Source: Candidatus Bathyarchaeia archaeon (lineage in GTDB: Archaea; Thermoproteota; Bathyarchaeia; Bathyarchaeales; Bathycorpusculaceae). From it: a stretch of 64,000 nucleotides of DNA. Below the pieces are notes generated by a model. That model worked only from the letters and a program-made list of their open reading frames with translations, made no database searches and was not told the origin of the DNA. Positions 8,163 through 59,686 of the stretch are shown here, in pieces. The DNA lies in NCBI GenBank assembly GCA_038882655.1, contig JAVZNT010000002.1, forward strand, positions 1-64,000, in the 5' to 3' direction. Both the position numbers and the translations under genes were made by a program. Numbering within the stretch: position 1 is the first letter of the stretch; each line of letters begins with the position of its first letter.

Positions 8163-8248
8163 TCCCTTTCGCCATTTCTTGTATGCCGGTGCTTGTTGAT
8201 AAGCTTAAACATTTAAAAGTGCAAGCCAGCCATGAAAATAATTGAGGG

Positions 8249-8818: not shown

Positions 8819-8823
8819 CAGTG

Positions 8824-8976: not shown

Positions 8977-9095
8977 ACTCTTCTATGCCTCGCGGTTCTT
9001 TGGATAGAAGATTTAGTGTTGGGAGACTTAAGTTGTGTGAATTTAGGATATGAATCATTAATATTTTAAAGTTGAATTCCAATAAACGTGATACT

Positions 9096-9689: not shown

Positions 9690-10007
9690 AATAAATCTTG
9701 CAGCTTTTTAAGGCTTAAGTTTTGCTGATGGCTTCGTTAACCATAGAAAAGCGCCTGCAAAAAGCATGCACCTCATTCATGATGAGAAGTCATGAACCTT
9801 GCGCGGCTGAGCACAAGCTTTTACGTAACGCTCTAACAAGCGACATGATTTCTAAAGGGCGGTTAAGAAGTTGATGTCTAAAAATACTAGTTGCCCCTTG
9901 AGAAAAGCTATAGAGAACATCTTTTGGCATGGTCAAGCATTTGAATAGCTTTTTCTATAAGCTTAGACCTATTAAAGGTTGAAAGCATTAAATGGACTTG
10001 AAAGGTT

Positions 10008-11231
10008 ATGGCGGAAAATGTCCGCGAGCTCTTAAAAGCTCATGAAGGATTGAGACGTGAGGTTTACCTAGACATTGAAAACTCAAGCATGGTTCCAAAC
10101 GAGGTCGTTGAGGCTATGCTCCCATACTTTAACCAACGCGCCTATGGTAATCCGACGCTTACCCACAAGCCTGGATGGGAAGCTTTCGAAGCTATAATGA
10201 AATCAGCCCAAGAAATAGCCGGCTTCATGGGTTGCAAAAACCTTGAAGAGGTTAATTTTACGCCGGGCGAAACAGAAGCTAACAACCTCGCCTTGCTAGG
10301 TGCAACTCTTCAGATGCGGAGGAAGGGTAAGAAAATTGTGATTTCTGAAGTTGAGCCGTTAAGCATTATGCACGTGGCTGAAATGCTCGCCAAATACGGT
10401 TTTACTGTAACAAAAATCCCAGTTGACGGTGAGGGCTTTATAAACCTCGAAAAATTGAAGGAAACCATTAACAGCGAAACTATTCTCGTAAGCCTCTCCG
10501 TTGTAAACCACGAAATAGGAACAATACAACCCATAAAAGAAGCCCAAGAAATCGTTAAGGACAAGAATCCAAACGCAATATTTCACACAGACGCCTCAGA
10601 CGCTTATGGAAAAATACCATTCAAAGTGCAAAACTTAGGCTTGGACATGGCAACAATAAGCAGCTACAAAATCCTGGGACCCCGCGGAATAGGCGCCCTC
10701 TACGTAAAGGAAGGCGTAAACATAGAAAGAATAATGGAGGGGCAGCTTGGCACACAAAAGCTTTGGCCAGGCGTCGAAAACACGCCACTAATAGTTGGCT
10801 TTGCAAAAGCCTCTGAGCTCGCCTTCCAAAACTTTGAAGACAACGTTCGACGCATGTGGAGACTGAGGGACAAGCTCATAAACGGAATCTTTGAGAAAGT
10901 AGCTGACGTGCGCCTAAACGGTCCAAAGAGCGAGAAAAGGGCGCCCGACAATGCCAACATAAGCTTCCTACGCTGTGAAGGCGAAGCCCTAACAATTGAG
11001 TTAAGCCTAAATGGCGTTTATGTTTCAAGCGGAAGCGCATGCACAAGACGCTTATTACAGCCAAGCCACGTCCTAACAGCCATAGGCAGAAAATTCGAGG
11101 AAGCCCATGGAAGCATACTCATGAAGGTTACCCGCTATCACACGGAAGAGGACATAGACTACGTTTTGGAAGTACTGCCAAAAGCCGTTGAGAGGCTTAG
11201 GGGGATAACTGGCACAACAGTGGTGGAATAA
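10008..11231 (+). CDS. IscS/NifS-fold protein with degenerate PLP/substrate site
   Basis: Class I desulfurase layout, VSSGSAC and K-x-x-GP kept; EPLS, DASD, WPGV, SILMK replace EHKAV, DATQ, RSGT, SIRFS. Confidence 0.85.
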   Translation: MAENVRELLKAHEGLRREVYLDIENSSMVPNEVVEAMLPYFNQRAYGNPTLTHKPGWEAFEAIMKSAQEIAGFMGCKNLEEVNFTPGETEANNLALLGATLQMRRKGKKIVISEVEPLSIMHVAEMLAKYGFTVTKIPVDGEGFINLEKLKETINSETILVSLSVVNHEIGTIQPIKEAQEIVKDKNPNAIFHTDASDAYGKIPFKVQNLGLDMATISSYKILGPRGIGALYVKEGVNIERIMEGQLGTQKLWPGVENTPLIVGFAKASELAFQNFEDNVRRMWRLRDKLINGIFEKVADVRLNGPKSEKRAPDNANISFLRCEGEALTIELSLNGVYVSSGSACTRRLLQPSHVLTAIGRKFEEAHGSILMKVTRYHTEEDIDYVLEVLPKAVERLRGITGTTVVE

Positions 11232-11232
11232 G

Positions 11233-11733
11233 ATGTCGCGCGTACCTCTGCCCTACAGCCAAAAAATCCTTGAACTTTTCAGAAACCCTAAAAACCTTGG
11301 AAGAATGGAAGACGCTACAGTTTCAGCCGTAGCTGGAAACCCCCAGTGTGGAGACATGATAACCTTTTATCTAAAAATAAACGAGCAGGACATAATTGAA
11401 AAGGCAACCTTTGAAAGCTATGGATGCGCCGCCAACATAGCCACATCCAGTATAGTAACAGAAAAAGTGAAGGGAATGAAACTTGAAGACGCATGGAAAA
11501 TTACATGGAAAGGCGTAGCGGAAGAAGTTGGCGGACTCCCAGCGGTAAAATTCCACTGTGGCATTCTAGCCGTCGGCGCTCTAAGACGCGCCATAAGAGC
11601 CTACTACAAAAACAAGCAGACAATGCCGGAATGGCTTCCAAAAGACCTAACCTTTGAGGAAAAACAAGCCCTAGAGGAGGAGGAACTGGCAAGAATCCTC
11701 GAGAAAAAGATGAAGATGGCGGAGGGAAAATAA
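11233..11733 (+). CDS. iscU: Fe-S scaffold IscU/NifU-N with charged C-terminal extension
   Basis: NPKNLG, GNPQCGD, YGCA, LPAVKFHC. Confidence 0.92.
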   Translation: MSRVPLPYSQKILELFRNPKNLGRMEDATVSAVAGNPQCGDMITFYLKINEQDIIEKATFESYGCAANIATSSIVTEKVKGMKLEDAWKITWKGVAEEVGGLPAVKFHCGILAVGALRRAIRAYYKNKQTMPEWLPKDLTFEEKQALEEEELARILEKKMKMAEGK

Positions 11734-12971
11734 TGTTCAACCCATACAAGATTAGGGAAGACTTCCCAATTTTAAAACGCAAAATAAACAATCACCCACT
11801 CATCTATTTTGATAACGCCGCCACATCCCAGAAACCAAAACAAGTGATAGAGGCCATAAAAGAGTACTATGAAATGCATAACGCCAACGTCCACAGAGCA
11901 GTGCACACCCTCTCGTTGGAGGCAACGGAGCTTTATGAAAGCGCCCACGAGGAAACAGCCAAATTCATAGGAGCGGAAAGCACCGAAGAAATAGTCTTCA
12001 CAAAAGGAACAACAGAGGCCATAAACACTGTCACTTACTCTTGGGGATTGCGAAACCTCAAACAAGGCGACGAGGTTCTAGTCACACTCATGGAACACCA
12101 CAGTAACATCGTGCCATGGGAAATCCTCTCAAAAATAAAGGACTTCAAAGTACGCTACATAGACGTCAACGAAGATGGAACCCTAAACAAACAAGCCCTT
12201 GAAGAAGCCCTTTCTCCAAAAGTAAAAATAGTCTGCATGGCACACGTCTCAAACGTCACTGGCGTGATAAATGATGTGCAGTATGCTGCAAAACTCGCCC
12301 ATGAAAACAACGCCCTAATCCTCATCGACGGCGCCCAATCTGTACCCCACATACCAATAAACGTGAAGGAAATAGACTGCGACTTCCTAGCCTTTTCTGG
12401 ACATAAAATGCTTGGACCTACGGGCATAGGCGTCCTATATGGCAGACGGGAAATCCTAGAAGAAATGGAGCCCTTCCATGGAGGGGGCGAAATGATACGT
12501 GAAGTCTCTTACAACCCAAAAACCAAAAGCTGCACAATAACATGGAATGAAACCCCATGGAAATTCGAGGCTGGAACACCAAATATATGCGGCGGAGTAG
12601 GCTTAATGGCAGCTGTAAAATACCTAAAAAATCTTGGAATGGAAAAGGTTAAAGCCCATGAATGCGCCCTAACCGAATACGCCATAAAACGCCTCCAAGA
12701 ATGCCAAAAAGTCAAGGTTTATGGACCAAAGGACGTGAAAGCCAAATGCGGCATAGTGCCTTTCAACCTTGAAGGTTTCGACTCCCACGACTTGGCTCTG
12801 CTCTTGGACACTTATGGCATAATGATAAGAAGCGGCTTCCACTGCGCCCAACCACTACATCAAAGATTCGGGCTAAAATCATCAGCAAGAGCAAGCTTCT
12901 ACATATACAACACCCGCGAAGAAATCGACAAGCTAGTGGAAGCCCTAAAGGAGATCGAACAATCCCTATGA
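11733..12971 (+). CDS. sufS: Cysteine desulfurase, SufS subfamily
   Basis: YFDNAATSQKP, EHHSNIVPW, DGAQ, SGHKMLGPTG, FEAGTP, RSGFHCAQP. Confidence 0.94.
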   Translation: MFNPYKIREDFPILKRKINNHPLIYFDNAATSQKPKQVIEAIKEYYEMHNANVHRAVHTLSLEATELYESAHEETAKFIGAESTEEIVFTKGTTEAINTVTYSWGLRNLKQGDEVLVTLMEHHSNIVPWEILSKIKDFKVRYIDVNEDGTLNKQALEEALSPKVKIVCMAHVSNVTGVINDVQYAAKLAHENNALILIDGAQSVPHIPINVKEIDCDFLAFSGHKMLGPTGIGVLYGRREILEEMEPFHGGGEMIREVSYNPKTKSCTITWNETPWKFEAGTPNICGGVGLMAAVKYLKNLGMEKVKAHECALTEYAIKRLQECQKVKVYGPKDVKAKCGIVPFNLEGFDSHDLALLLDTYGIMIRSGFHCAQPLHQRFGLKSSARASFYIYNTREEIDKLVEALKEIEQSL

Positions 12972-13240
12972 GCGCTGTCCCAAACGATTACATAGCAAGA
13001 ATCGAAGAGGCATGCGGAGAAGAAAAAGACTACATAATCCACTTCAAATATGACAAAAAAGAAGAGGCAATAACAAAAATACTGAAAAAAGCCGCATTAC
13101 AAAAAACCGTGGTAAAAATAATCTTCGACCTAACATACAAAGAAACCCAAATACGCTTATATGCGACTGGGAAAGCCATCTTCAAAAAAGTGAAAGATAA
13201 AGACCAGCTGAACCAAATCCTAACAGAATTACTCTCTTAA
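12968..13240 (+). CDS. Small hypothetical protein, translationally coupled to sufS
   Basis: ATGA overlap with sufS stop; single Cys (EEACG); IRLYATGKAIF. Confidence 0.7.
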   Translation: MSAVPNDYIARIEEACGEEKDYIIHFKYDKKEEAITKILKKAALQKTVVKIIFDLTYKETQIRLYATGKAIFKKVKDKDQLNQILTELLS

Positions 13241-13278
13241 ACCTTCAATTTCCACATTTTAAGTGGCAAAGTTTATAA

Positions 13279-13306
13279 GTATTACTTTTTAATTAAAAAG
13301 TAATAC
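13279..13306. promoter_or_regulatory. Perfect 28-bp palindrome, NikR-type operator, next to a TATA box
   Basis: GTATTACTTTTTAATTAAAAAGTAATAC (GTATTA-N16-TAATAC) directly after TTTATAA (13272-13278), 13 nt before the cbiM ATG. Confidence 0.8.
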
Positions 13307-13319
13307 CGAGGTCGATTAA

Positions 13320-13982
13320 ATGCATATACCAGACGGCTACATAAGCCCAGAAATCGCCGCCATGATGATTGCAATATCCATCATCTTCCTTGTTTTATCA
13401 TGGAAAAAGGCAAAAACAATATACCCGAAAGCATTAGCCCCATTGTTGGCAGTTTCAAGCGCCTTCGTCTTCGCAGCCCAGATGGTTAACTTCCCAATAA
13501 CATATGGAACAAGCGGACACTTGGTGGGCGGAACATTCCTCTCAGTGGTTTTAGGCCCTTATGCGGCAATCCTAAGCATGACAATAGTCCTACTAATGCA
13601 GGCGCTGTTCTTCGCAGACGGCGGAATAATGGCCCTAGGAGCAAACATTTTTAACATGGCGGTTATAGGCGGCTTAAGCTTCTTCATAGTTAAACTTATA
13701 GCTGGGAACTCAACCAGAGGCAAACGCTTTTTTATAGGCGTATTCACAGCTTCATGGCTATCAGTTGTTCTAGGGGCTTTGGCATGCGGCTTGCAAATAG
13801 GGTTTTCACCAGTCTTCACGGAAGCTGGTGGAATAACCGTAACAGTCCCAGCTATGCTTTTTTGGCATGTGCTAATAGGCATCGGCGAAGCATCAATAAC
13901 AACGACAGCCATAACACAACTGTACCGAGTGCAACCCGCAGTATTGAATGGTTTAGCTTTCCTAAAGAGGGAAGCCCTTTGA
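13320..13982 (+). CDS. cbiM: ECF Ni/Co transporter substrate component CbiM/NikM
   Basis: N-terminal MHIPDG, GTSGHLVGG, QALFFADGG. Confidence 0.93.
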   Translation: MHIPDGYISPEIAAMMIAISIIFLVLSWKKAKTIYPKALAPLLAVSSAFVFAAQMVNFPITYGTSGHLVGGTFLSVVLGPYAAILSMTIVLLMQALFFADGGIMALGANIFNMAVIGGLSFFIVKLIAGNSTRGKRFFIGVFTASWLSVVLGALACGLQIGFSPVFTEAGGITVTVPAMLFWHVLIGIGEASITTTAITQLYRVQPAVLNGLAFLKREAL

Positions 13983-14260
13983 AAGGCTACGTTGAAGCAT
14001 TAATCCTAATAGCTGTCGGGCTTGCAATCCTAATACCTTTCGCCTCATCCTACCCAGACGGCTTAGAAACGGTGGCTGAAACTCTTAAAGTGGAAGAGGC
14101 GAAACCATTCTGGGGTGGGTTGATGCCAGACTACACCCTACCAGCAATCGAAAACCCATACCTCTCGACATTGGCAGCGGGCTTCTTCGGACTAATCATA
14201 GTTTCGGCTACAGCATACGCCCTAGGCAATTTAATATCAAAAGAGGACGAAACAAAATAG
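13979..14260 (+). CDS. PDGLE-domain membrane protein (NikN-like)
   Basis: ASSYPDGLE, MPDY, two TM helices; TTG start overlaps the cbiM stop. Confidence 0.85.
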   Translation: MKGYVEALILIAVGLAILIPFASSYPDGLETVAETLKVEEAKPFWGGLMPDYTLPAIENPYLSTLAAGFFGLIIVSATAYALGNLISKEDETK

Positions 14261-15493: not shown

Positions 15494-16519
15494 TTAAATG
15501 TATTTTCTCATATCTTCGGTCGCGGCTGACGGTACTGGTAAGTCCTTCATGGAGAGTAGGCCCGCTGGAGCCTTCAACACCTTTGGAATAGAGTTTATGA
15601 TTATTGCCACGGTGCCCGCGTCTCCATGGATGCACGGCTGAATTTTCTGTTTGATGGCTGGAACACCAGTGATTGTTATGGCATCGTACTCTTCTTTAGC
15701 TCCAATATATGCTTGAAAGTCTAGAGCGATAACTTCTTTGCCCTTCATGATACCTTTTGCCTTCTGCCTCAAACCTGCAACCTTTCCAGCCTCAACCCTT
15801 ATGAAGTCGCTTTTCACTGGTTCTTTGGCTATTACTGGTTCAACAGGCTCGGCCCTTATTTCATCAAGTTTCCATACCAAAGCATCTGCAATCATCGCAA
15901 TGGATTGTTCTAGTCCTACGTGCCCGGTTATCTCTCCCTTCTCGATTTTTTGTTGAAATTCCTCTGCTGTTAAGCCTGCCCCTATCTTTTTCTGGAATGG
16001 TAAACGTCTTGTTGCAGCGTTCATAACTCTGACAGCTTCGATTTTCTCTATTTTTTGGCAGGCAGCCGTCAGCGTTATTACAAGAGTATCCATTAGGAAG
16101 CCCGGATTTATTCCTGCGCCTAAAACTGTTGCGCCATGCTTTTTGGCTAGTTGGTCTAGTTCTTTTGCGAGTTTTGGCGTTGAATAGTGAGGATATGAGA
16201 GTTCTTCGCATGTTGATATCACTTTTGCGCCATGTTTAACAATAGAGGCTATCTGAGGATAGGTGTCTTTTAGATAGGATGAGGTTGCGTGAATGACAAT
16301 GTCCGGCTTTGCTTTTGAGAGTACGGCGTTAACATCGCTTGAAACTGTTACGCCTAATTCCTTGTTTAAGCCTAAAACTTCGCCTAAATTTTTGCCAACC
16401 TTATCCTTTGCAACATCAATTACGCCGACCACCTTTACGCCTCTTTTTTCAAGGAGAGATTTTACTATTAAACTTCCAACAGCGCCAACTCCATATAAAA
16501 CAACTCTAACATCTTTCAT
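15494..16519 (-). CDS. NAD(P)-dependent amine dehydrogenase, 2,4-diaminopentanoate dehydrogenase (Ord)/DapB-like
   Basis: YGVGAVG, ISTCEELSYP, GAGINPGFLMD, GHVGL, GDAGT. Confidence 0.75.
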   Translation of the reverse strand: MKDVRVVLYGVGAVGSLIVKSLLEKRGVKVVGVIDVAKDKVGKNLGEVLGLNKELGVTVSSDVNAVLSKAKPDIVIHATSSYLKDTYPQIASIVKHGAKVISTCEELSYPHYSTPKLAKELDQLAKKHGATVLGAGINPGFLMDTLVITLTAACQKIEKIEAVRVMNAATRRLPFQKKIGAGLTAEEFQQKIEKGEITGHVGLEQSIAMIADALVWKLDEIRAEPVEPVIAKEPVKSDFIRVEAGKVAGLRQKAKGIMKGKEVIALDFQAYIGAKEEYDAITITGVPAIKQKIQPCIHGDAGTVAIIINSIPKVLKAPAGLLSMKDLPVPSAATEDMRKYI

Positions 16520-16652
16520 AGTTGTGCTCCTCGCGGTTTATGGTTTATTTGGTGATGCGGTCTATAAAAGAGGTTTGGCTTATGATTTAAAGCTTTACAT
16601 TTGTAAAGTTTATATCTCTGAGCCTTCCCAATAATAGGAAGGCGGGCTAAGT

Positions 16653-18095
16653 TTGAGCACTGGAAAAACCATAACTTACAGAGAAGTCCTCGCCGAATAT
16701 TCAGATGCCGAGAAAATTAAGTTCTGCTTTGAATGCGGCATATGCACGGCAAGCTGCCCCATGGCAGAACTTCTAAAAGGGGAGTACAACCCGAGAAACA
16801 TTCTTGAAAAAATTTTTTTAAACATCAAAGAAGCTTTTGTTTCAGATGAGATTTGGCTCTGCGCTTGGTGTTATCGCTGCTATAGGCATTGTCCTCAAGC
16901 ATTAAAACCGCCAGAAATATTCCTCTACGCCCGAAAGTTCGCAATCAAAGCTGGATATAAACAAGCATTTGAAAACGCTATCCAAAAAATTGTTAAGGTA
17001 TCTCCCATCCCTCTAGTCACGATTCATGCCTGTTTCCATCCGGAGCGCGCAGGATTAGACTTAAGCAAGGTCATAAAAGAAGCCGAAAAACTGAGAAAGG
17101 AATTTTTAGAGGAGAAAAAAAGGGAAATTAAGGCAGAACCAGCAAAAAAGAAAGTTGCGGTTATAGGTTCTGGACCTGCAGGACTCACCGTTGCTCATGA
17201 TTTAACTTTGAAAAACTATGAAGTTACGATTTTTGAGGCTATGAAAGAGCCTGGTGGCATGTTAAGGAAGTGTTTGCCCGCCTATCGTCTTCCAAGGGAA
17301 CTTTTAGACATGGACATACAAGCATTGAAGGACCTCGATGTGGAAATAAAGACTGGTGTGACAGTTGGTAAAGATGTTGATTTTAACAGTTTACGGGGTC
17401 TAAGCTATGACGCCATTTTCGTTGGCGTTGGTGCCAATAAAGGGCAACACTTGAAAATTGAGGGCGCTGACTTAGAAGGGGTGGTGCATGCTCTAGACTT
17501 TCTCTGGATGTTTAACTCTGGAATAGCGCCGAATGTTAGGAATAAACGTGTTGCCATCATTGGCGGTGGAAATGTTGCAGTTGACTCCGCAAGAACCGCC
17601 CTCAAACACGGGGCTAAGGAGGCGATTATTTTTTATCGAAGGTCCAGGGAGGAGATGCCCGCAAACCCATGGGAAGTTAAGGAGGCAGAAAATGAGGACG
17701 CAAAAATTGAGTTTTTAGTCTCTCCGAAGAGAATTTTGGGTGAGGATAAAAGGGTTTTCGCTGTTGAGTTTGTTCGGATGAAGTTAGGCGAGTTAGATGA
17801 GACCGGAAGAAGAAAACCGATCCCCATTGAAGGTTCTGAATTTGTTAAAGAGGCGGACATGGTGGTTTTGGCGATAGGCGAAGTCCCAGATCTCCATTTT
17901 CTGCCTAAGGAAATTGAATTGAATGAGGGCGGAACAATTTGGGTTAACCCGTTAACTATGGAGACAACCCTTGAGGGTGTTTTCGCCGGGGGAGATGCTG
18001 TAACTGGTCCAGCCTCAATTATTGAGGCGATATGTGCTGGGAAAATTGCTGCCTATTCAATTGACTGTTATTTAAGATCCTCGGGTTTGAGGTGA
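16653..18095 (+). CDS. Fusion of an HdrC-like 2x[4Fe-4S] domain and a GltD/NfnB-like FAD/NAD(P) oxidoreductase
   Basis: CFECGICTASCP, WLCAWCYRCYRHCP; VIGSGPAG, IIGGGNVAVD, YRRSREEMPA, FAGGDAVTGP. Confidence 0.85.
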   Translation: MSTGKTITYREVLAEYSDAEKIKFCFECGICTASCPMAELLKGEYNPRNILEKIFLNIKEAFVSDEIWLCAWCYRCYRHCPQALKPPEIFLYARKFAIKAGYKQAFENAIQKIVKVSPIPLVTIHACFHPERAGLDLSKVIKEAEKLRKEFLEEKKREIKAEPAKKKVAVIGSGPAGLTVAHDLTLKNYEVTIFEAMKEPGGMLRKCLPAYRLPRELLDMDIQALKDLDVEIKTGVTVGKDVDFNSLRGLSYDAIFVGVGANKGQHLKIEGADLEGVVHALDFLWMFNSGIAPNVRNKRVAIIGGGNVAVDSARTALKHGAKEAIIFYRRSREEMPANPWEVKEAENEDAKIEFLVSPKRILGEDKRVFAVEFVRMKLGELDETGRRKPIPIEGSEFVKEADMVVLAIGEVPDLHFLPKEIELNEGGTIWVNPLTMETTLEGVFAGGDAVTGPASIIEAICAGKIAAYSIDCYLRSSGLR

Positions 18096-18102
18096 CTGAA
18101 AA

Positions 18103-20508
18103 ATGGCGAGAGAGGAAATACGCGTAGGGGTTTATGTTTGCCACTGCGGTTTGAATATTGCAGGGTCTGTTGACTGTAAAGAGGTTGCAGAATTTGCTTC
18201 AACGCTCCCTAATGTTGTTTTGGCAAGAGATTACCGTTATACATGCTCGGACCAAGGGCAAGAGCTAATTAAGAATGATATTAGGGAGTATAGGCTTAAC
18301 CGTGTGGTTGTTGCCTCGTGTTCTCCTCGCCTCCACGAGCCAACGTTTCGAAAAGTGTGTGAAGAGGCTGGGTTAAACAAGTACCTTTTTGAGATGGCTA
18401 ACATACGGGAGCAGTGCAGTTGGGTTCACCTACATGATAGGAAGGCAGCAACCCAAAAGGCTAAAGACCTTGTGAAGATGGCTGTGGCAAAAGCTGCCCT
18501 ATTAAAACCAGCCAGCGAAATTGAAGTGCCAATTATACGAAAAGCATTAGTTATTGGCGGCGGCGTTGCAGGAATTCAAGCAGCATTAGACCTTGCTGAC
18601 ACTGGTTATAAGGTTTATTTGGTGGAAAGGGAGCCGAGCATCGGCGGAATGATGGCGCGAATAGATAAGACTTTCCCAACAATGGACTGTTCCATATGCA
18701 TTCTTGCCCCAAAAATGTCCGACGTGGGGCATCATCCAAACATTGAACTATTAACCAACAGTGAAGTTATCGATGTAAAGGGGTATATCGGCAACTTCCG
18801 AGTAAAAGTTTTAAAAAAGCCGCGTTATGTGAAGGAAGACTGCTCAGCGTGCGGTGAATGCTCAAAAGTTTGTCCCATGACAGCGCCGAACGAGTTTGAT
18901 GCTGGATTAGCCCTAAGACACGCCATTTACACGCCGTTTGCACAAGCAGTTCCGTCAACCTACATAATTGACATGAACCTATGCCTAAACAAAGACGGCG
19001 TAATGGTATGCGACAAATGCGTTAAGGCTTGCGAAAGGCAAGCCGTAGACTTCACAATGAAACTTGAAACCGTAGAACTAGAAGTAGGCACGATTATAGT
19101 GGCAACAGGCGCAGACATTTTCGACCCTTCAAATCTGCCGCAATATGGTTACGGCAAGTATCTAAACGTCATCACATCCCTCGAGTTTGAGAGGCTAATT
19201 AATGCTGGAGGTCCTTCCGGTGGAAGACTAATTAGACCTAATGATATGAAAGTTCCAAAACGTGTGGCTTTCATACAATGTGTTGGCTCCCGCTCCAATA
19301 GGACTGGACGAACCTACTGCAGCAATGTTTGCTGCATGAACACCATAAAGGACGGCCTCCTCATCAAAGAACACTGGCCTGAAACTGAAATCTACGTCTT
19401 TTATGTTGATATTCGTGCATATGGAAAGGGCTTTGAAGACCTATACAAGAGGGCTAAAAAGGAAGGTGTAATATTCATCCGGGGGCTTCCAGCAGAAATA
19501 ATTGAGGATAAGAAAACTCGGAACCTTTGGCTTATAGGCGAAAACACGCTTTTGAAAGAGCCTTATAAAATGAACTTTGACATGGTTATTCTATCCGTTG
19601 GGCTGGAACCGCGAAAAGACAGCGAAGTGATACAGAGGCTTTTGACTCTTTCGAGGACACAGGACGGATTTTTCATGGAGGCCCACCCAAAACTTAGACC
19701 GGTGGACGCCGCCACGGGAGGCATATTTTTCGCTGGGTGCGCTGAAGCCCCAAAGGACATAAAGGACAGCGTAACACAAGCCAGCGCGGCTGCAGCCAGA
19801 GCCGGCATACTAATGGCTAAAGGCAAAGTTACGGTTGAGGCCATTACGCCAATTTTAGATGTGGAAAAATGTAAGGCTTGCGGGCTTTGCACAAAGGTTT
19901 GTCCCTACAATGCAATAACCCTCAACAAGGATCTTAAACGAGTTGAAATTGTTGAGGCTGCTTGTGGTGGATGCGGAACATGCGCTGCAGAATGTCCATC
20001 TGACGCATTAACTCAGAACCATTTCACTGATGAGCAAATAATGGCTCAAATTGACGCCGTTACGGAACATGATGCCGACAAGAAAATTGTCGCTTTTTGC
20101 TGCAACTGGTGCGCGTATGCGGGTGCAGATTTCGCCGGAGTAAGCAGAATGCAGTATCCGCCAAACGTTCGTATAATTAGGACCATGTGCTCTGGAAGAG
20201 TAGCCCCTAAATTCGTTGAAAGAGCCTTCGCAAGAGGCGCTGCCGCAGTTCTAGTAGCTGGCTGCCACCCTGGAGACTGCCACTACATCAATGCCAACTA
20301 TCATACACAAAGACGTGTGGAACGCTTATGGAAGAAGATGGAACAGAATGGGCTGAACAAAGAGAGGCTTCAGCTTTTATGGGCTTCAGCGGCTGAAGGG
20401 GAAAGATACGCTTCCAAGATTTATGAGATGCAAAAAATTGTGGAGAGCGTAACCCCAGAGGAAATAGAACATGCCAAAAAAGTTTTTTCAAAAGTTGGAG
20501 GAGCTTAA
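18103..20508 (+). CDS. hdrA: Heterodisulfide reductase A fused to an MvhD domain
   Basis: VYVCHCG, ASCSPRLHE, GGGVAGI, DKTFPTMDCSIC, QCVGSR, CSNVCC; C-terminal FCCNWCAY, MCSGR, GCHPGDCHY. Confidence 0.93.
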   Translation: MAREEIRVGVYVCHCGLNIAGSVDCKEVAEFASTLPNVVLARDYRYTCSDQGQELIKNDIREYRLNRVVVASCSPRLHEPTFRKVCEEAGLNKYLFEMANIREQCSWVHLHDRKAATQKAKDLVKMAVAKAALLKPASEIEVPIIRKALVIGGGVAGIQAALDLADTGYKVYLVEREPSIGGMMARIDKTFPTMDCSICILAPKMSDVGHHPNIELLTNSEVIDVKGYIGNFRVKVLKKPRYVKEDCSACGECSKVCPMTAPNEFDAGLALRHAIYTPFAQAVPSTYIIDMNLCLNKDGVMVCDKCVKACERQAVDFTMKLETVELEVGTIIVATGADIFDPSNLPQYGYGKYLNVITSLEFERLINAGGPSGGRLIRPNDMKVPKRVAFIQCVGSRSNRTGRTYCSNVCCMNTIKDGLLIKEHWPETEIYVFYVDIRAYGKGFEDLYKRAKKEGVIFIRGLPAEIIEDKKTRNLWLIGENTLLKEPYKMNFDMVILSVGLEPRKDSEVIQRLLTLSRTQDGFFMEAHPKLRPVDAATGGIFFAGCAEAPKDIKDSVTQASAAAARAGILMAKGKVTVEAITPILDVEKCKACGLCTKVCPYNAITLNKDLKRVEIVEAACGGCGTCAAECPSDALTQNHFTDEQIMAQIDAVTEHDADKKIVAFCCNWCAYAGADFAGVSRMQYPPNVRIIRTMCSGRVAPKFVERAFARGAAAVLVAGCHPGDCHYINANYHTQRRVERLWKKMEQNGLNKERLQLLWASAAEGERYASKIYEMQKIVESVTPEEIEHAKKVFSKVGGA

Positions 20509-20509
20509 A

Positions 20510-20788
20510 ATGCCGGAAAGGCTTTGGAGAACTCCACTAGATATTGATAAGGTTTCGAGGCTGAAAGCTGAAATTCACATATTGAAAGACCAGTGTAAGG
20601 GTTGTGGCTTCTGCATTCAATACTGTCCCAAAAAAGTTTTAGAAGAATCCAATGAAATTAATGCCAGAGGAGTTCATCCCCCAAGAGTTGTTGATGAAAA
20701 AAGCTGCATATTATGTAGCTTTTGTACGGCTGTTTGCCCAGACTTCGCAATCTTCGTTAAGGAGAAACAATGTAAGGATGGATGTTAG
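20510..20788 (+). CDS. 2x[4Fe-4S] ferredoxin, 2-oxoacid:ferredoxin oxidoreductase delta subunit
   Basis: CKGCGFCIQYCP, CILCSFCTAVCPDFAI; likely start ATG 20510. Confidence 0.9.
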   Translation: MPERLWRTPLDIDKVSRLKAEIHILKDQCKGCGFCIQYCPKKVLEESNEINARGVHPPRVVDEKSCILCSFCTAVCPDFAIFVKEKQCKDGC

Positions 20789-21943
20789 ATGGCTGGCGAA
20801 AAAACGGTTTTAACTGGCGTGCACTTTATGAGCGGCGACATAGCATGCGCAGAGGGCGCCATCGCGGCTGGATGCCGATTTTTCGCTGGATACCCCATAA
20901 CACCAGCAACTGAGATAGCCGAGCACATAGCAGCCCGAATGCCAAAAGTTGGCGGAATCTACATTCAAATGGAAGATGAAATAGCCTCTATAGCCGCCGT
21001 TATAGGCGCATCCTATGCGGGTTTGAAGGCTATGACGGCCACTTCTGGACCGGGCTTCAGCTTGATGCAGGAGAATATAGGCTTGGCTGCCATGACAGAA
21101 GCCCCATGCGTGATTGTTGACGTAATGCGGGGAGGCCCCAGCACTGGACAACCAACTCTTCCGGGACAACAGGATGTCATGCAAGCCAAATGGGGTTCCC
21201 ATGGCGATTATGAAATCATTGCGTTGGCGCCTTCATCTGTTCAGGAAATGTTTAACTTGACGATTGAGGCGTTTAACTTGGCTGAGACTTACCGTGTTCC
21301 AACATTGGTGATGGCTGACGAAGTTGTTGCCCACATGTGGGAAAGAGTTATGATTCCACCAGTTGAGGAGATAAAGGTAGTTAACCGCAAAAAGCCTAAC
21401 ACACCACCAGAAAAGTATGCGCCTTTCATGCCCGATGACGACTTGGTTCCACCCATGGCTTGTTTCGGCGAGGGTTTTCGTTTTCATGCAACAGGCTTAA
21501 CCCATGATGAGTATGGCCATCCACGCACGCAAAGCTCAGAGGCTCAAACGAGGCTTGTGCAGAGGCTCTGCGACAAAATAAGGAAAAACGCTGACAAAAT
21601 TATCCGCGTTGAAGAACAAATGCTGGACGACGCCGACATAGTGGTTTTTGCCTACGGAATAGTTGCAAGGGCAGCCCTAAGCGCTGTAAGAAAAGCAAGG
21701 CAACAAGGTATAAAAGCGGGGCTCCTCCGCCCAATCACCCTTTGGCCTTTCCCAGAAAAGCATGTGGCAAAGGCTGCTGAAAAAGCTAAAGCCATAATTG
21801 TTCCAGAAATGAATTGTGGGCAGATGGTTAGGGAAGTTGAAAGAGCCGCAAAAGGAAAGTCGGCTTTTCATTTACCAAAATTAGGTGAGGAGCCGCATAC
21901 GCCGATGGAAATTCTCGAGTTTATAAGGAGGCATGATAGATGA
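20789..21943 (+). CDS. korA: 2-oxoacid:ferredoxin oxidoreductase alpha subunit (KorA type)
   Basis: GYPITPATE, QMEDEIA, TATSGPG, RGGPSTG. Confidence 0.9.
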   Translation: MAGEKTVLTGVHFMSGDIACAEGAIAAGCRFFAGYPITPATEIAEHIAARMPKVGGIYIQMEDEIASIAAVIGASYAGLKAMTATSGPGFSLMQENIGLAAMTEAPCVIVDVMRGGPSTGQPTLPGQQDVMQAKWGSHGDYEIIALAPSSVQEMFNLTIEAFNLAETYRVPTLVMADEVVAHMWERVMIPPVEEIKVVNRKKPNTPPEKYAPFMPDDDLVPPMACFGEGFRFHATGLTHDEYGHPRTQSSEAQTRLVQRLCDKIRKNADKIIRVEEQMLDDADIVVFAYGIVARAALSAVRKARQQGIKAGLLRPITLWPFPEKHVAKAAEKAKAIIVPEMNCGQMVREVERAAKGKSAFHLPKLGEEPHTPMEILEFIRRHDR

Positions 21944-22779
21944 TAGAGGCTGTTGAGCAGCATCCCCTTTCAAAATATTTGAGAGCCGCCATGATGCCTC
22001 ACATATGGTGCTCCGGATGTGGAAATGGCATAATACTCAACGCTTTTGTGCATGCACTTGACGAGTTGCGGATAAACCTTGACAAGCTTGTAGTCGTTTC
22101 TGGAATAGGCTGCATTGGAAGGGCAGCTGGCTACACGAATGTTGATTCCTTTCACACAACTCATGGGCGCCCCATTGCCTTTGCAACTGGCGTTAAACTT
22201 GCAAACCCAGAGTTGGAAGTTGCTGTTATAAGCGGTGACGGTGACCTTTTTGCCATAGGGGGGAACCACTTCATCCACGCCGCAAGGAGAAACATTGGAA
22301 TTAAGGTGATATGCGCCAACAACTTCAACTACGGAATGACTGGCGGACAAGTTGGACCAACAACACCATTAGATGCTCTTACGACAACAACACCTTATGG
22401 GAATATAGAACATCCCTTCAACCTGGTTCATTTGGCAGCGGCGGCCGGCGCCACTTATGTGGCAAGATGGACAACACTTCACGTGCGAATGCTAACAATG
22501 TCCATAAAGAAACTTCTGCAAAGAAAAGGCTTCTCCTTTATAGAGGTTATATCGCCATGCCCAGAAATTTATGGACGCCGCAACAGAATGCGAACGGGGC
22601 TTGAAATGATGGAGTGGTTTAAGAAGGCAGCAGTTATCGCCAACTTCTCAGACCCGGCTAAGGCGGAAATAAACTCCGAAAGAATAGTTATCGGCGAATT
22701 TGTTGACATTCAGAAGCCAACCTATGATGAGCTGCTCCACAATAAAATGGCACAAATAGTGAAAGATTGTGGGGAGTAA
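21940..22779 (+). CDS. korB: 2-oxoacid:ferredoxin oxidoreductase beta subunit
   Basis: WCSGCG, SGIGC, HTTHGR, GDGD..GMTGGQ..PTT, SPC. Confidence 0.9.
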   Translation: MIEAVEQHPLSKYLRAAMMPHIWCSGCGNGIILNAFVHALDELRINLDKLVVVSGIGCIGRAAGYTNVDSFHTTHGRPIAFATGVKLANPELEVAVISGDGDLFAIGGNHFIHAARRNIGIKVICANNFNYGMTGGQVGPTTPLDALTTTTPYGNIEHPFNLVHLAAAAGATYVARWTTLHVRMLTMSIKKLLQRKGFSFIEVISPCPEIYGRRNRMRTGLEMMEWFKKAAVIANFSDPAKAEINSERIVIGEFVDIQKPTYDELLHNKMAQIVKDCGE

Positions 22780-22789
22780 GTGAGGCGTT

Positions 22790-23335
22790 ATGCGTGTTGA
22801 AATCAGATTTGCAGGTTTCGGCGGGCAGGGAATAATTAAATCGGGAATTATGGTGGCTACAGCTGCATGCATATACAGTGGAAAACACGCCGTGCAAACA
22901 CAGTCTTATGGACCGGAGTCGCGAGGAGGCGCATGCCGATCTGAAGTTGTGATAGCGGACGATGAAATTGACTTTCCAAAAGTCACAGAGCCAGACGTCT
23001 TGGTGGTGATGTCCCAGCACGCCTACAACGAGTATGCGGAAACTGTGAAAAAGGGAGGAACAATAATACTTGACCCGGATATGATTCCCAACGAGATGGA
23101 ACTTGAAGGTGTAAAAGTTTTCCGTGTTCCAGCCACGAGGATGGCTGAGGAGCTTGGAAGGAGGATTGTTGCAAACGTCGTTATGCTGGGGGCTTTTGCA
23201 GCAATAACTGGAATGGTGGACAAGGAAGCCCTAAAAGAGTCGATTAAGGCTAATGTTCCAAAGGGTACAGAGGAGCTAAACCTAAAAGCCTTTGAAATTG
23301 GCTATGAATACGGCAAAAAGGCTGTTGAAGGCTAA
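22790..23335 (+). CDS. korC: 2-oxoacid:ferredoxin oxidoreductase gamma subunit
   Basis: GFGGQG, SYGPESRGG, ANVVMLG, NLKAF. Confidence 0.9.
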   Translation: MRVEIRFAGFGGQGIIKSGIMVATAACIYSGKHAVQTQSYGPESRGGACRSEVVIADDEIDFPKVTEPDVLVVMSQHAYNEYAETVKKGGTIILDPDMIPNEMELEGVKVFRVPATRMAEELGRRIVANVVMLGAFAAITGMVDKEALKESIKANVPKGTEELNLKAFEIGYEYGKKAVEG

Positions 23336-23949
23336 CTTTGCTGCTCAACGCTCTGCAGTGGCACTTGTAATTGAGCCACTTGTGTCAGAAGCTTAGATTT
23401 TCTAATGCCAACGTGGCGAAGGGGAACAATTTTTCTTGCTTCGTTGTAAATGTCTGACGCTATTTTTCCTAGAACCATTTCTTGGACAAACTGGTCCATT
23501 GTTAGGGCGGTGCTTTTCTCCTCAACTATTTTCGCCATAATTTTACGTATGGCATGCTCTTGTGAAGTCTTTATCCTTGAAAGGGTAAAGGCGCAGACCG
23601 CCAATCTAAATCTGTAACCGTCTTTTGTTGAAACGTTAAAGATTCCATCAACCTTTGTTGTTCTCCGCCTCACAAGACTTCTAAGGTAGTCCCTTGAATA
23701 TTCATGTCCTTTAAACACGGTGCGGGCTGTTTTCTCATCTATCTGTATTATTTGGAAGTACAATTTTAAGTACTGGTGGGAAAAGTCTCCCGTAATATCG
23801 TAAAGTGTTGCCTCAATAACCCTTCCAATGATTTTTTCTTGTTCATCCGCTGGGATTGAGCCTAGCTCAACGTTTCCGAAGTATGATGGGGCAACTACCG
23901 TGTACCATGCCTTGCTACGCCACTTATCCCTTATCTTTTTAGTTGACAA
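23332..23949 (-). CDS. rps3ae: Ribosomal protein eS1 (S3Ae)
   Basis: DKWRSKAWY, TLYDITGD, RDYLRSLVRR. Confidence 0.95.
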   Translation of the reverse strand: MSTKKIRDKWRSKAWYTVVAPSYFGNVELGSIPADEQEKIIGRVIEATLYDITGDFSHQYLKLYFQIIQIDEKTARTVFKGHEYSRDYLRSLVRRRTTKVDGIFNVSTKDGYRFRLAVCAFTLSRIKTSQEHAIRKIMAKIVEEKSTALTMDQFVQEMVLGKIASDIYNEARKIVPLRHVGIRKSKLLTQVAQLQVPLQSVEQQS

Positions 23950-59683: not shown

Positions 59684-59686
59684 AAG

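Follow-up and report, generated by a model that had tools for sequence, protein, structure and literature searches.

A Bathyarchaeial operon combining an HdrA-MvhD flavoprotein, an NAD(P)-binding iron-sulfur flavoprotein and a putative 2-oxoacid:ferredoxin oxidoreductase

Introduction

In a hot-spring Bathyarchaeon, six plus-strand genes are packed at 16653-23335 of the 64,000-nucleotide stretch of DNA analysed here (the window). By their sequences, they form a tight operon predicted to encode an HdrA-MvhD flavoprotein (HdrA2), an NAD(P)-binding iron-sulfur flavoprotein (g1) and a 2-oxoacid:ferredoxin oxidoreductase (Kor). The locus raises the question of where an HdrA of this kind could send its electrons, or obtain them, when its neighbours are not the usual ones. 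The gene content points to a possible link of pyridine nucleotides with very low-potential carbon chemistry.

Layout of the operon

The first-pass annotation described six co-directional genes with gaps of at most 10 nt, and both the open reading frames and the junction sequences bear this out (Table 1). Spacing ranges from -4 to +10 nt, and Shine-Dalgarno-like motifs are present at the junctions, such as GAGGTGA 8-14 nt ahead of the hdrA2 ATG, overlapping the g1 stop codon, and GGAGG upstream of the korD ATG at 20510. An alternative, longer korD frame from 20471 would overlap hdrA2 by 38 nt. At the distal end, the 3' end of korC overlaps by 4 nt a convergent gene for ribosomal protein S3Ae (23332-23949, minus strand). 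A Pfam scan of the six genes revealed no CCG (HdrB) or hydrogenase domain, and the operon contains neither an NfnS/NfnA (PyrK-like) partner gene nor a module for a third substrate.

Table 1. Genes of the operon, a candidate promoter element and the domains of g1
Feature	Position	Strand	Remarks
Candidate archaeal TATA box TTTATAT	16609..16615	+	about 40 nt 5' of the g1 start codon; spotted by eye
g1	16653-18095	+	TTG start, 480 aa; 7-nt gap to hdrA2
hdrA2	18103-20508	+	801 aa; 1-nt gap to korD, given ATG 20510
korD	20510-20788	+	92 aa; 0-nt gap to korA
korA	20789-21943	+	alpha subunit, 2-oxoacid:ferredoxin oxidoreductase; overlaps korB by 4 nt
korB	21940-22779	+	beta (TPP-binding) subunit; 10-nt gap to korC
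korC	22790-23335	+	gamma subunit; last gene
g1 HdrC-type 2x[4Fe-4S] domain	residues 18-102		C25/28/31/35 and C70/73/76/80
g1 tail of GltD-family N-domain	residues 104-160		P118, P120, C127
g1 motif in the FAD domain	residues 172-177		GSGPAG
g1 motifs in the NAD(P)H domain	residues 304-309, 328-331		GGGNVA, YRRS

Domains of the encoded proteins

Domains of g1 were assigned from Pfam and NCBIfam matches and its conserved residues were read from a 24-sequence alignment. Residues 18-114 match solved HdrC (8rvv_C, E 1.6e-17), with 32-37% identity of g1 to the host genome's own HdrC, and residues 160-476 match FAD/NADPH modules of the NfnL/GltD type (9n5u_A, E 1.3e-86); no match of an NfnL N-domain to the g1 N-domain was found at E<=1 in a PDB sequence search. 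Both modules of the "HdrC-GltD fusion" proposed in the first-pass annotation are thus present, but the idea of an add-on fusion did not hold, as g1 has the whole NfnL architecture. Homologues of 477-480 aa span 100% of it, and its AF2 model (pLDDT 91.7) superposes on NfnL 5jca_L with Z 34 and an rmsd of 3.0 A over 393 residues (42% identity). Since g1 is no longer than is usual for NfnL/GltD proteins and its model fits onto the whole of NfnL, the HdrC-type domain replaces the di-cluster domain of the family, whose C..PCE..C motif is retained only as C127. With such an ordinary architecture, the HdrC-like sequence need not imply an HdrC-like docking site.

HdrA2 residues 4-653 match solved HdrA (5odc_A, E 1.4e-259) and residues 659-788 match the [2Fe-2S] domain protein MvhD (5odc_D, E 4.5e-44), and the fusion scores 1283.5 bits with NCBIfam HdrA2 model NF040770 (cut-off 1100). 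It has the FAD site, an inserted ferredoxin domain (C247/250/253/257 and C294/303/306/310) and a C-terminal ferredoxin domain, its cysteines being invariant in a 12-sequence alignment.

Judged by profile models, Kor is a 2-oxoacid enzyme whose alpha and gamma subunits pass generic models only, the 2-oxoglutarate-specific ones not being passed. KorA (POR_N and PFOR_II) reaches 590.6 with NF006412 (cut-off 411) and fails the 2-oxoglutarate-specific NF007206 (408 vs 579), KorB (TPP_enzyme_C) does not pass NF007207 (268.5 vs 364), and KorC (POR domain) scores 248 with NF006323 (cut-off 235). The korD-like product is a 2x[4Fe-4S] ferredoxin with Fer4 domains (OGOR_delta, 65.9 bits vs a cut-off of 125). 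This ferredoxin stays with hdrA2 even where korABC is missing or has its own delta subunit: at locus L122 the copy beside hdrA2 is 73% identical, against 37% for the Kor delta that belongs to this locus, and at L128 a 51% identical copy sits between hdrA2 and cdhC.

Conservation of g1 with HdrA2

A search for g1 in G000 and 150 sampled Bathyarchaeia genomes at E<=1e-100 gave matches in 17 other genomes, from which 15 regions were fetched and searched by tblastn with the six operon proteins. A g1 orthologue is present in 12 of them (L118-L129), full-length in 11 and without its first ~70 residues in L122; the other three regions hold different GltD-family proteins. At all 12 loci an HdrA2 orthologue (66-84% identity) adjoins g1, in three different arrangements. 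The reciprocal HdrA2 search found 13 genomes at 66% identity or more, the next match being at 58% or less, and 12 of these 13 are the g1 genomes. In a tree, g1-linked HdrA2 proteins group in a single clade (support 100/100) that takes up 12 of the 22 rows. No selected neighbour at the 12 loci had an HdrB-type (CCG) match in a Pfam scan. Upstream, relatives carry divergent genes for 5-oxoprolinase and a DAP-dehydrogenase-like gene.

Joint conservation holds for g1 and HdrA2, but not for Kor, which follows HdrA2 at five of the 12 loci and partly at a sixth (L122), and is absent from six. The loci devoid of Kor either have a polyferredoxin, accompanied at one of them by a neighbouring AOR gene, or are part of a CODH/ACS cluster. 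On this gene distribution, g1 and HdrA2 are the conserved core and KorABC is a later addition. Kor is linked to HdrA-MvhD in all three lineages, namely the window's clade, L133 and L134.

In the thirteenth genome (G015), locus L133 reads korD-korA-korB-korC-hdrC-hdrB-hdrA2, with abutting or overlapping genes and a confirmed CCG domain, and three of seven fetched loci of a paralogue clade (L135, L136, L139) read pfd-hdrC-hdrB-hdrA. In both, HdrC and HdrB fill the exact place of g1, directly upstream of hdrA2.

Natural fusions also occur: of 39 loci from bacteria or ANME-1 with a g1 homologue that retains its N-domain, 28 have pieces of HdrA on either side of the g1-like module, and five loci were verified to be one uninterrupted reading frame. 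The module enters HdrA within its inserted ferredoxin domain, at a point between residues equivalent to about 290 and 294 of HdrA2, which argues for docking at the ferredoxin branch rather than at the HdrC site. The earlier idea of an HdrC-type domain that hands electrons to a pyridine-nucleotide site, and not to HdrB, is consistent with the exchange of g1 for HdrC and HdrB; the placement of the module in the fusions, on the other hand, makes the wiring less certain.

HdrB and hydrogenase genes elsewhere in the genome

The absence of HdrB and hydrogenase noted at first is true of the operon but not of the genome. Elsewhere it contains four CCG (HdrB-type) genes and two mvhGA pairs, every one of them neighboured by an hdrA or tfrA of its own; F420-related genes are present too. 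None of the four CCG genes is an orphan in this 84% complete genome. Given these genes, a distant HdrB could still be the partner of HdrA2. In Methanosarcina acetivorans, hdrA2 is presumably unlinked from hdrC2B2, so a distant HdrBC partner is conceivable here too.

A proposed electron path and its alternatives

The likeliest reading, to which we give about even chances, is that the six genes encode one soluble redox complex, with a conserved core of g1, HdrA2 and the small ferredoxin, to which Kor is attached in the window's lineage. Low-potential electrons would move between the clusters of Kor and KorD on one side and the ferredoxin-type clusters of HdrA2 on the other, and from the HdrA2 flavin electrons would pass to the HdrC-type di-cluster domain of g1, its FAD and finally NAD(P)+, or in the reverse direction. 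Thus g1 would be a functional stand-in for the HdrC and HdrB of HdrA2B2C2, with NAD(P)(H), be it NADP or NAD, replacing the heterodisulfide. The net reaction would be 2-oxoacid (probably 2-oxoglutarate) + CoA + NAD(P)+ <-> acyl-CoA + CO2 + NAD(P)H, possibly coupled at the HdrA2 flavin or the MvhD domain to a third, mid-potential partner (F420/hydrogenase) by bifurcation or confurcation. If only ferredoxin-to-NAD(P)+ transfer occurred, g1 alone would seem to be enough, and the HdrA2 flavin would have no explained role without a third substrate; no module for one is encoded nearby at any of the 12 g1 loci.

A rather unlikely alternative is that g1 serves as an NAD(P)H input. Electrons would enter HdrA2 as in Flx-Hdr or in fused type III HdrA/HdrL and be bifurcated at its flavin, the low-potential one passing through KorD to Kor for reductive carboxylation of succinyl-CoA to 2-oxoglutarate, and the high-potential one to an acceptor encoded elsewhere (such as an HdrBC or a thiol:fumarate reductase-like TfrAB). 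This agrees with the position of the g1-like module in the ferredoxin domain of the fusions and with proposals for kor/tfr with flxABCD-hdrABC in sulfur-oxidising symbionts (PMC6315080) and for NADH as the donor of type III HdrA (PMC12054007). The genome has TfrAB-like genes and two sucC-like genes, and neither citrate synthase nor isocitrate dehydrogenase was found in it at 84% completeness, which makes a reductive route to 2-oxoglutarate plausible. The potentials are -320 mV for NAD(P)H, +30 mV for fumarate and about -520 mV for 2-oxoglutarate synthesis, so NAD(P)H can pay for both. However, a high-potential acceptor is absent in or next to all 12 g1-HdrA2 loci, g1 occupies the hdrC-hdrB place of the sister operons, that is, the acceptor side, and the TfrAB-like genes lie on another contig beside pyruvate carboxylase genes, with no hdrA2 link seen.

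The lack of a third-substrate module in the operon would suit a plain, non-bifurcating 2-oxoacid:NAD(P)+ oxidoreductase, analogous to 2-oxoacid oxidoreductases that have a flavoprotein subunit of their own for NAD(P) reduction, in which HdrA2 is a mere iron-sulfur/flavin wire between KorD and g1. So would the weak NCBIfam similarity of KorA/KorB/KorC to PadG/PadI/PadE of NADH-dependent phenylglyoxylate dehydrogenase, the NfnL-like module of NfnABC, described as a non-bifurcating NADP(H) site widely shuffled among enzymes (PMC12018979), and the relatives' divergent genes, which fit glutamate catabolism. We nevertheless hold it improbable: roughly 200 mV would be wasted, a strictly conserved complete HdrA (FAD site, all cluster motifs and MvhD, at 66-84% identity) would be left unexplained, and g1-HdrA2 also occurs apart from Kor, with polyferredoxin (and AOR at one locus) or CODH/ACS. 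That last fact, the absence of Kor from six of the 12 loci, would rather suggest separate enzymes sharing a promoter, g1-HdrA2 being a free-standing ferredoxin/NAD(P)/F420 balancer and KorDABC an ordinary oxidoreductase using soluble ferredoxin. The genome's other Kor-type enzyme, at 58532-61037 of the window, has no hdr genes around it, which also favours this view. It seems the most improbable reading of all, because the hdrA2-korD gap is only 1 nt, a korD-type ferredoxin follows hdrA2 even without korABC (L122, L128), and Kor recurs in HdrA-MvhD operons of three separate HdrA lineages.

Comparison with known systems

HdrL, type III HdrA and the kor/flx-hdr cluster are already in print, and we found no published description of the split archaeal form, with g1 and HdrA2 separate. 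Judging from passages of four papers (PMC12054007, PMC9012536, PMC2702500, PMC5947623), the type III HdrA/HdrL/HdrA-NfnB fusions contain the same two modules and lack biochemical characterisation, NAD(P)H is proposed as a substrate, and in S. fumaroxidans HdrAL clusters with pyruvate:ferredoxin oxidoreductase (Sfum_0012-0018). Over g1 residues ~16-480, with both cluster motifs, the part inserted in them shares 36-44% identity with g1. In the fusions the module lies inside HdrA, within one polypeptide, whereas in the window g1 has a gene of its own, next to a complete HdrA-MvhD; the fusions usually sit with a second HdrA and a separate MvhD, often with HdrBC.

The large subunit of NfnSL/NfnAB (5jca_L, 4ylf_B) shares with g1 the whole-chain fold, two [4Fe-4S] clusters, FAD and the NADPH site, but the first 100 residues of g1 are HdrC-type by sequence, and its partner is HdrA2, with no NfnS/NfnA gene. 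HdrA2B2C2 of M. acetivorans similarly has an HdrA-MvhD fusion, an HdrC-type di-cluster relay and a ferredoxin partner; ferredoxin and F420 both interact with HdrA2 there, the role of HdrC2 being limited to relaying electrons to HdrB2 (PMC5296606). The window differs in having no HdrB, in the covalent joining of the HdrC-type domain to an NfnL-type FAD/NAD(P)H module and in the presence of a 2-oxoacid:ferredoxin oxidoreductase, and heterodisulfide chemistry is not expected there.

Tubeworm symbionts and Thioflavicoccus mobilis likewise combine KorABCD in one cluster with a bifurcating module of the Hdr type and a module for pyridine nucleotides; in them, kor/tfr genes are interspersed with flxABCD-hdrABC and direct electron delivery to 2-oxoglutarate oxidoreductase was proposed (PMC6315080). 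That cluster is bacterial, uses FlxABCD as the NADH module and includes HdrB, HdrC and Tfr, whereas the archaeal window has one NfnL-type subunit and no HdrB. Finally, in the methanogen Mvh/Fdh-Hdr-Fmd(Fwd) supercomplexes (7bkb, 8rvu, 9sw6), HdrA is connected through a (poly)ferredoxin to a very low-potential CO2 enzyme, the donor being H2 or formate and the acceptors heterodisulfide and formylmethanofuran dehydrogenase; by analogy, Kor, AOR and CODH/ACS might be the corresponding partners of g1-HdrA2.

Layout and surroundings of the operon

The first-pass annotation had described six co-directional genes with gaps of 10 nt or less, and both the ORF table and the junction sequences bear this out. 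Six plus-strand ORFs occupy the operon, with gaps of 7 nt between g1 and hdrA2, 1 nt between hdrA2 and korD (ATG at 20510, GGAGG upstream), 0 nt between korD and korA and 10 nt between korB and korC, while korA and korB overlap by 4 nt. GAGGTGA, a motif overlapping the g1 stop codon, lies 8-14 nt before the hdrA2 ATG; GTGAGG is found 5' of korC, and a candidate TTTATAT motif, picked out by eye only, lies about 40 nt 5' of g1. The genome amounts to 1.02 Mb in 27 contigs, is estimated to be about 84% complete, and carries the window on contig C2. A row of NifS-like, NifU/IscU-like and SufS-like genes, an iron-sulfur cluster assembly set, precedes this cluster-rich operon by about 4 kb. A tRNA scan found no tRNA genes in the window.

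Two runs labelled as metatranscriptomic WGS, both from one hot-spring study and probably of DNA, hold near-identical short contigs across the operon, and one such contig, again probably DNA, covers the g1/hdrA2 junction with zero differences. An RNA-Seq run and a run of raw RNA reads, from this study or a neighbouring one, gave no operon contigs, from which neither transcription nor silence follows.

Coordinates of the operon, its surroundings and the compared loci (positions without a prefix are those of the window)
Feature	Location	Strand	Remarks
Operon g1-hdrA2-korD-korA-korB-korC	16653-23335	+	
g1	16653-18095	+	480 aa
hdrA2	18103-20508	+	801 aa
Junction-covering contig	17885-18175		g1/hdrA2 junction
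2,4-Diaminopentanoate-dehydrogenase-like gene	15494-16519	-	divergent from g1; NF040740 347 bits vs cut-off 400
Ribosomal S3Ae gene			convergent neighbour of operon
Iron-sulfur assembly set	10008-12971		
Second Kor-type oxidoreductase	58532-61037		
Acyl-CoA dehydrogenase-like gene	61120-62337		after second Kor
CofE-family F420-ligase match	40559-41209	-	
CofE-family F420-ligase match	C1:83314-83964		
CofE-family F420-ligase match	C1:101969-102619		
CofE-family F420-ligase match	C10:18663-19154		
FrhB-like gene	C4:8664-9104		
C22 cluster	C22:6-9639 (L015)		partial GltD-containing ORF, MvhD-HTH, 1010-aa double HdrA, mvhD, hdrC, hdrB, mvhG, mvhA, hycI
C11 first cluster			mvhG, mvhA, hdrA-mvhD (859 aa), hdrC, hdrB
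C11 second cluster			hdrA-mvhD (792 aa) facing hdrCB fusion, TrxR-like gene, polyferredoxin-MvhD
C23 cluster	C23:275-5750 (L016)		tfrA and tfrB-like genes by pyruvate carboxylase genes
L122 g1 match	G123:C1:1475000-1494000, 8709-9938		from residue 71 on
L126 gene group	G043:C38, 4495-7521		
L128 gene group	G081:C1:1362000-1381000, 7143-14161		
Dehydrogenase/5-oxoprolinase regions	L118:10873-14428; L120:104-2595; L123:10718-14206; L119:5103-7570		LamB_YcsF, CT_C_D, CT_A_B domains

g1 resembles NfnL throughout, with an HdrC-type beginning

The closest homologues of g1 are named Candidatus Bathyarchaeia, and Pfam places Fer4_8/Fer4_17 at residues 23-84 and Pyr_redox_2 at 166-461. When residues 1-160 alone were searched against the sequences of solved structures, only HdrC chains were matched (8rvv_C, 1.6e-17; 5odc_C, 7.4e-17), and no NfnL, GltD or DPD chain appeared at E ≤ 1; this N-domain is 32-37% identical to both HdrC proteins of its own genome. 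The possibility that an ordinary NfnL N-domain had been mislabelled as HdrC was rejected, since the isolated domain matches HdrC chains only. Residues 160-476 match NfnL-type modules (9n5u_A, 1.3e-86; also 5jca_L and 4ylf_B). Two CX2CX2CX3CP motifs (C25/28/31/35-P36 and C70/73/76/80-P81) are invariant or nearly so in 24 aligned sequences; they are followed by P118, P120 and C127, the last being the sole cysteine left of the GltD-type C..PCE..C motif, which is intact in two ordinary relatives in the alignment. GSGPAG and GGGNVA motifs are also present, and a conserved YRRS motif after the second Rossmann strand suggests NADPH, an assignment that we take over from the GltD family.

The AF2 model of g1 (pLDDT 91.7, pTM 0.91) superposes on NfnL 5jca_L over 393 residues (Z 34, rmsd 3.0 A, model 9-476 on chain 2-472), and likewise on NfnB 4ylf_B (Z 32.4), GltD 2vdc_G (Z 31.4) and DPD. 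Together with the motifs, it gives the three-domain layout of NfnL/NfnB/GltD, with a helical di-cluster domain, an FAD domain and an NAD(P)H Rossmann domain. Curated models of neither family are passed: HdrC models score 73.2 vs 160 bits (TIGR03290) and 60.5 vs 350 (NF041779), and NfnL/GltD-family models 331.6 vs 516 (PRK12771) and 286.4 vs 471.75 (TIGR01316), the latter two matching only from residue ~75 on. Of the best 150 matches among the 1.84 billion representatives searched, most start at g1 residue ~104-106, in proteins of 400-1500 aa and many different architectures.

The earlier description of g1 as an HdrC-GltD fusion thus holds at the level of sequence, but not in the sense of an add-on, since the whole model superposes on NfnL; the N-domain is HdrC-type in sequence, yet its fold and position are those of NfnL. 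Unlike HdrC proper, a separate protein of ~185 aa that pairs with HdrB, the domain lies within the 480-aa g1 with no HdrB adjacent. We read g1 as an NfnL-family flavoprotein in which the first half of the di-cluster domain is HdrC-type, and the model places this domain where the clusters of the family link FAD to a partner.

A different identity, the small subunit of glutamate synthase, was considered because Kor would supply 2-oxoglutarate; it was set aside, as the partner of g1 at all 12 related loci is HdrA2 and not GltB.

HdrA2 and the Kor subunits

HdrA2 exceeds the curated NCBIfam cut-off (NF040770, 1283.5 vs 1100 bits; residues 7-789 on profile 1-777). Residues 4-653 align to solved HdrA 5odc_A 2-649 (E 1.4e-259) and residues 659-788 to MvhD 5odc_D 5-134 (E 4.5e-44), and one chain thus holds first a complete HdrA, with its FAD domain and both ferredoxin domains (the inserted and the C-terminal one), and then MvhD. 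An FlpD match (Pfam) and invariant cysteines (alignment) are present, and the ferredoxin insert is uninterrupted. In KorDABC all four subunit types of the oxidoreductase were found (POR_N/PFOR_II, TPP_enzyme_C, POR and two Fer4). Alpha and gamma exceed the cut-offs of generic NCBIfam models for 2-oxoacid:acceptor oxidoreductases; all scores with 2-oxoglutarate-specific models stay below the cut-offs (alpha 408 vs 579, beta 268.5 vs 364, delta 65.9 vs 125).

The second Kor-type oxidoreductase of the window is 55/47/40% identical to operon KorA/B/C and has no recognisable delta subunit; the 125-aa ORF preceding it has no family match, and an acyl-CoA dehydrogenase-like gene follows. The whole genome contains five POR_N matches.

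The g1-HdrA2 pair is conserved, its partners vary

The window's genome (G000) and 150 sampled Bathyarchaeia genomes were searched, and g1 was matched at E ≤ 1e-100 in 17 other genomes. Fifteen regions were fetched, which leaves out the matches in genomes G064 and G105 and the second or third matches in G124 and G110 (frames of 702-1265 aa). A g1 orthologue is present in 12 of the 15 (loci L118-L129), each time adjoined by an HdrA2 of 66-84% identity; the remaining three hold other GltD-family proteins. In nine loci g1 precedes hdrA2, in L129 it follows hdrA2, and in L126 and L127 the two genes diverge (with hdrA2 running off the contig in L127). ORF starts in fetched loci are the longest possible. 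At L122 the longest ORF of the truncated g1 match is 366 aa; loss of its first cluster motif, a frameshift or an assembly error may explain this.

What follows HdrA2 differs between loci. It is korD-korABC in four (L118, L120, L121, L123) and korD-korA-korB up to the contig end in L119; in L122 a korD copy (73% identical) comes first, and then a second, convergent korDABC with a delta subunit of its own that shares only 37% identity. A 96-aa ferredoxin, 51% identical to KorD, takes this place in L128, within a cdhA-like/cdhB...cdhC cluster, four loci (L124-L127) have a polyferredoxin of 316-327 aa, and L129 has no korD, korABC, such ferredoxin or polyferredoxin. Beside the divergent hdrA2/g1 pair of L126 lie polyferredoxin and aldehyde:ferredoxin oxidoreductase (AOR) genes; the L128 group runs prismane/CdhA-like gene, cdhB, g1, hdrA2, ferredoxin gene, cdhC, which is a CODH/ACS cluster. 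The assumption that the genes of the operon are conserved together therefore survives for g1 and HdrA2 (12/12 loci) but not for Kor; other loci have a polyferredoxin or a CODH/ACS context instead.

In the reciprocal search HdrA2 was matched in 58/151 genomes at E ≤ 1e-250, with a gap in identity between 13 genomes at 66-84% and the next at 58% or less. Of these 13, 12 coincide with the g1 genomes; the other one, G015, carries korD-korA-korB-korC-hdrC-hdrB-hdrA2 as abutting or overlapping genes, with the CCG (HdrB-type) domain confirmed. The gene position of hdrC-hdrB is thus the one held by g1. Seven loci were fetched from the paralogue group of 51-58% identity, and they show polyferredoxin-hdrC-hdrB-hdrA (L135, L136, L139), polyferredoxin-hdrA (L137, L138, L140) or korABC-polyferredoxin-hdrA (L134). 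In a maximum-likelihood tree of 22 HdrA-MvhD sequences the 12 g1-linked ones form one clade (100/100), the seven paralogues another (100/100), and G015 HdrA2 stands outside both. With midpoint rooting, where the two outgroup paralogues come from the same genome and have long branches, polyferredoxin-linked loci branch first within the g1 clade and Kor-linked loci form a derived group.

Judging by this tree, the g1-HdrA2 pair appears to have arisen once and to have been inherited together. Because of this one origin the 12 loci are kin and not independent cases, and the adjacency has been kept across a wide range of families. Kor appears to be a later recruit, which, by sequence, joined HdrA-MvhD operons independently in three lineages.

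Possible partners of HdrA2: HdrB elsewhere in the genome, or g1

Pfam detects no CCG domain in the operon, nor among the scanned neighbours at related loci. The first-pass annotation had called the operon free of HdrB and hydrogenase, which is right for the operon but does not extend to the genome, where eight CCG domain matches in four genes and two [NiFe] large-subunit genes were found. It is thus possible that HdrA2 is partnered by an HdrB encoded elsewhere. On the other hand, in the Pfam-scanned neighbourhoods each HdrB-type gene has an hdrA or tfrA neighbour of its own, and the window's HdrA2 is the only HdrA of the genome without an HdrB-type neighbour.

The TfrB-like protein of C23 (523 aa) combines 2Fe-2S, 4Fe-4S and two CCG domains, and its gene and that of a TfrA-like fumarate reductase flavoprotein are divergent from biotin carboxylase/biotin-carrier genes of pyruvate carboxylase type. 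At the start of C22, the partial ORF shares 59% identity with g1 residues 316-480 in its N-part, after which comes a ferredoxin domain; by sequence it probably represents the C-terminal end of a type III (GltD-inserted) HdrA.

Fused relatives point to joint function. Species-representative genomes contain at least 80 related loci, and the matches listed are mostly bacterial. In 39 of the 80 listed, the match to g1 begins at residue 30 or before, and HdrA-like segments lie within 3 kb in 30/39 of these vs 8/41 of those without the N-domain match. In 28 of the 39 listed, the g1-like part sits between HdrA residues ~6/145-290 upstream and ~290-303 onward downstream. Five loci checked are single open frames of 842-1484 aa in which the modules join at HdrA2 residues 290 and 294, within the ferredoxin domain that is inserted in HdrA. 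Hosts among the matches listed are mostly Desulfobacterota, with some Chloroflexota and one Methanophagales (ANME-1) MAG. Such forms are described, in the available text of the respective papers, as HdrL of Desulfobacterium autotrophicum, a g1-like/HdrA fusion (PMC2702500), HdrA-NfnB of ANME-1 (PMC9012536) and type III HdrA (PMC12054007). We regard the fusions as Rosetta-stone evidence that g1-like and HdrA modules work together. They also put the g1-like module on the ferredoxin branch of HdrA, which conflicts with docking at the HdrC site.

Electron flow and its direction

The best-supported model, because of homology and the swap between hdrC-hdrB and g1, is a chain in which electrons would pass from Kor via KorD to the HdrA2 clusters and FAD, then to the g1 clusters, the g1 FAD and NAD(P)+, or in the opposite direction; a third carrier may act at HdrA2. 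2-Oxoglutarate synthase operates near -520 mV, and the potential of fumarate is +30 mV. Published values are -380 mV for F420 and -320 mV for NADH (PMC5296606), and about -420 mV or lower for ferredoxin (PMC5861303). On these potentials, conversion of reduced ferredoxin plus NAD(P)H into 2 F420H2 or 2 H2 would be feasible, as would that of H2 into NAD(P)H plus low-potential electrons, while NAD(P)H alone would be unable to reverse Kor unless a high-potential acceptor were present. F420 is probably made or used, because four CofE-family F420-ligase matches and one FrhB-like gene were observed in this 1 Mb genome.

The evidence on direction is mixed. On one hand, citrate synthase and isocitrate dehydrogenase were not found in the 84%-complete genome, and pyruvate carboxylase, a Tfr-like fumarate reductase and two sucC-like genes were; these count toward 2-oxoglutarate synthesis. 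On the other hand, two glutamate dehydrogenase genes and an ADP-forming acyl-CoA synthetase count toward oxidation. So do the regions upstream of the pair, where L118, L120 and L123 have a divergent diaminopentanoate-dehydrogenase-like gene, then pxpA, pxpB and pxpC, and L119 has pxpABC; the window retains only the dehydrogenase-like gene, with no pxpABC beside it. We take pxpABC to encode 5-oxoprolinase, which yields glutamate, and these neighbours may tie the operon to glutamate metabolism and, by context, hint at the substrate of Kor.

Possible meaning and comparison with known systems

HdrA complexes are the best-understood flavin-based bifurcating enzymes, and to our knowledge all those characterised so far have HdrB and a disulfide at their end. 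In the monophyletic and widely conserved HdrA2 lineage described here, an NAD(P)-binding flavoprotein instead occupies the HdrC/HdrB position of sister operons, a natural experiment on whether HdrA can use a pyridine nucleotide as second substrate. We tentatively put forward, while considering it rather unlikely, that g1, HdrA2 and a ferredoxin form a flavin-based bifurcating or confurcating complex of a new class, which does without HdrB and balances three pools. One would be NAD(P)(H), reached via the HdrC-type relay; another a mid-potential carrier (F420 or hydrogenase) bound by HdrA2 or its MvhD domain; the third very low-potential clusters, passing electrons directly, without free ferredoxin, to an attached CO2- or acid-activating enzyme, here Kor and in other Bathyarchaeia AOR or CODH/ACS. 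Such a class would have arisen when an NfnL-type module replaced hdrB in situ, in an hdrC-hdrB-hdrA2 operon. Electrons near -500 mV are what all the variable partners deal with, whether Kor, CODH/ACS or a polyferredoxin (with AOR or on its own), and the module may therefore serve quite generally to connect low-potential carbon chemistry with the NAD(P) pool. Sediments and hot springs harbour abundant Bathyarchaeia, and what their many Hdr genes do in organisms without methanogenesis is acknowledged as an open question in PMC7886697.

In print, as far as the accessible text extends, a Flx-Hdr/kor cluster has been proposed (PMC6315080), an HdrAL/POR cluster is known from S. fumaroxidans (PMC5947623), and no description was found, in the open-access literature searched, of the split form seen in Bathyarchaeia, with an HdrC-type/NfnL subunit beside HdrA2 and Kor. 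Added here are the distinction of a conserved core from variable partners, the HdrA2 tree, the hdrC-hdrB variant of G015, the mapping of insertion sites in fused forms and the whole NfnL architecture of g1. In HdrA2B2C2, according to PMC5296606, F420 and ferredoxin are the interaction partners of the flavoprotein HdrA2, the role of HdrC2 is limited to passing electrons on to HdrB2, and the activities are ferredoxin:heterodisulfide oxidoreductase and F420H2-dependent bifurcation. Its catalytic partner is HdrB, with two CCG domains, whereas the window operon has none. The NfnSL transhydrogenase has a partner gene for NfnS/NfnA, a PyrK-like [2Fe-2S] flavoprotein, which the operon lacks. FlxABCD-HdrABC joins Flx to HdrBC, while Pfam and NCBIfam show no HdrB and no separate HdrC in the operon, and g1 as its only NAD(P)-type module. 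Finally, type III HdrA and HdrL carry the module within the HdrA polypeptide, whereas in the window g1 and hdrA2 are separate ORFs, divided by a stop codon and the short intergenic gap.
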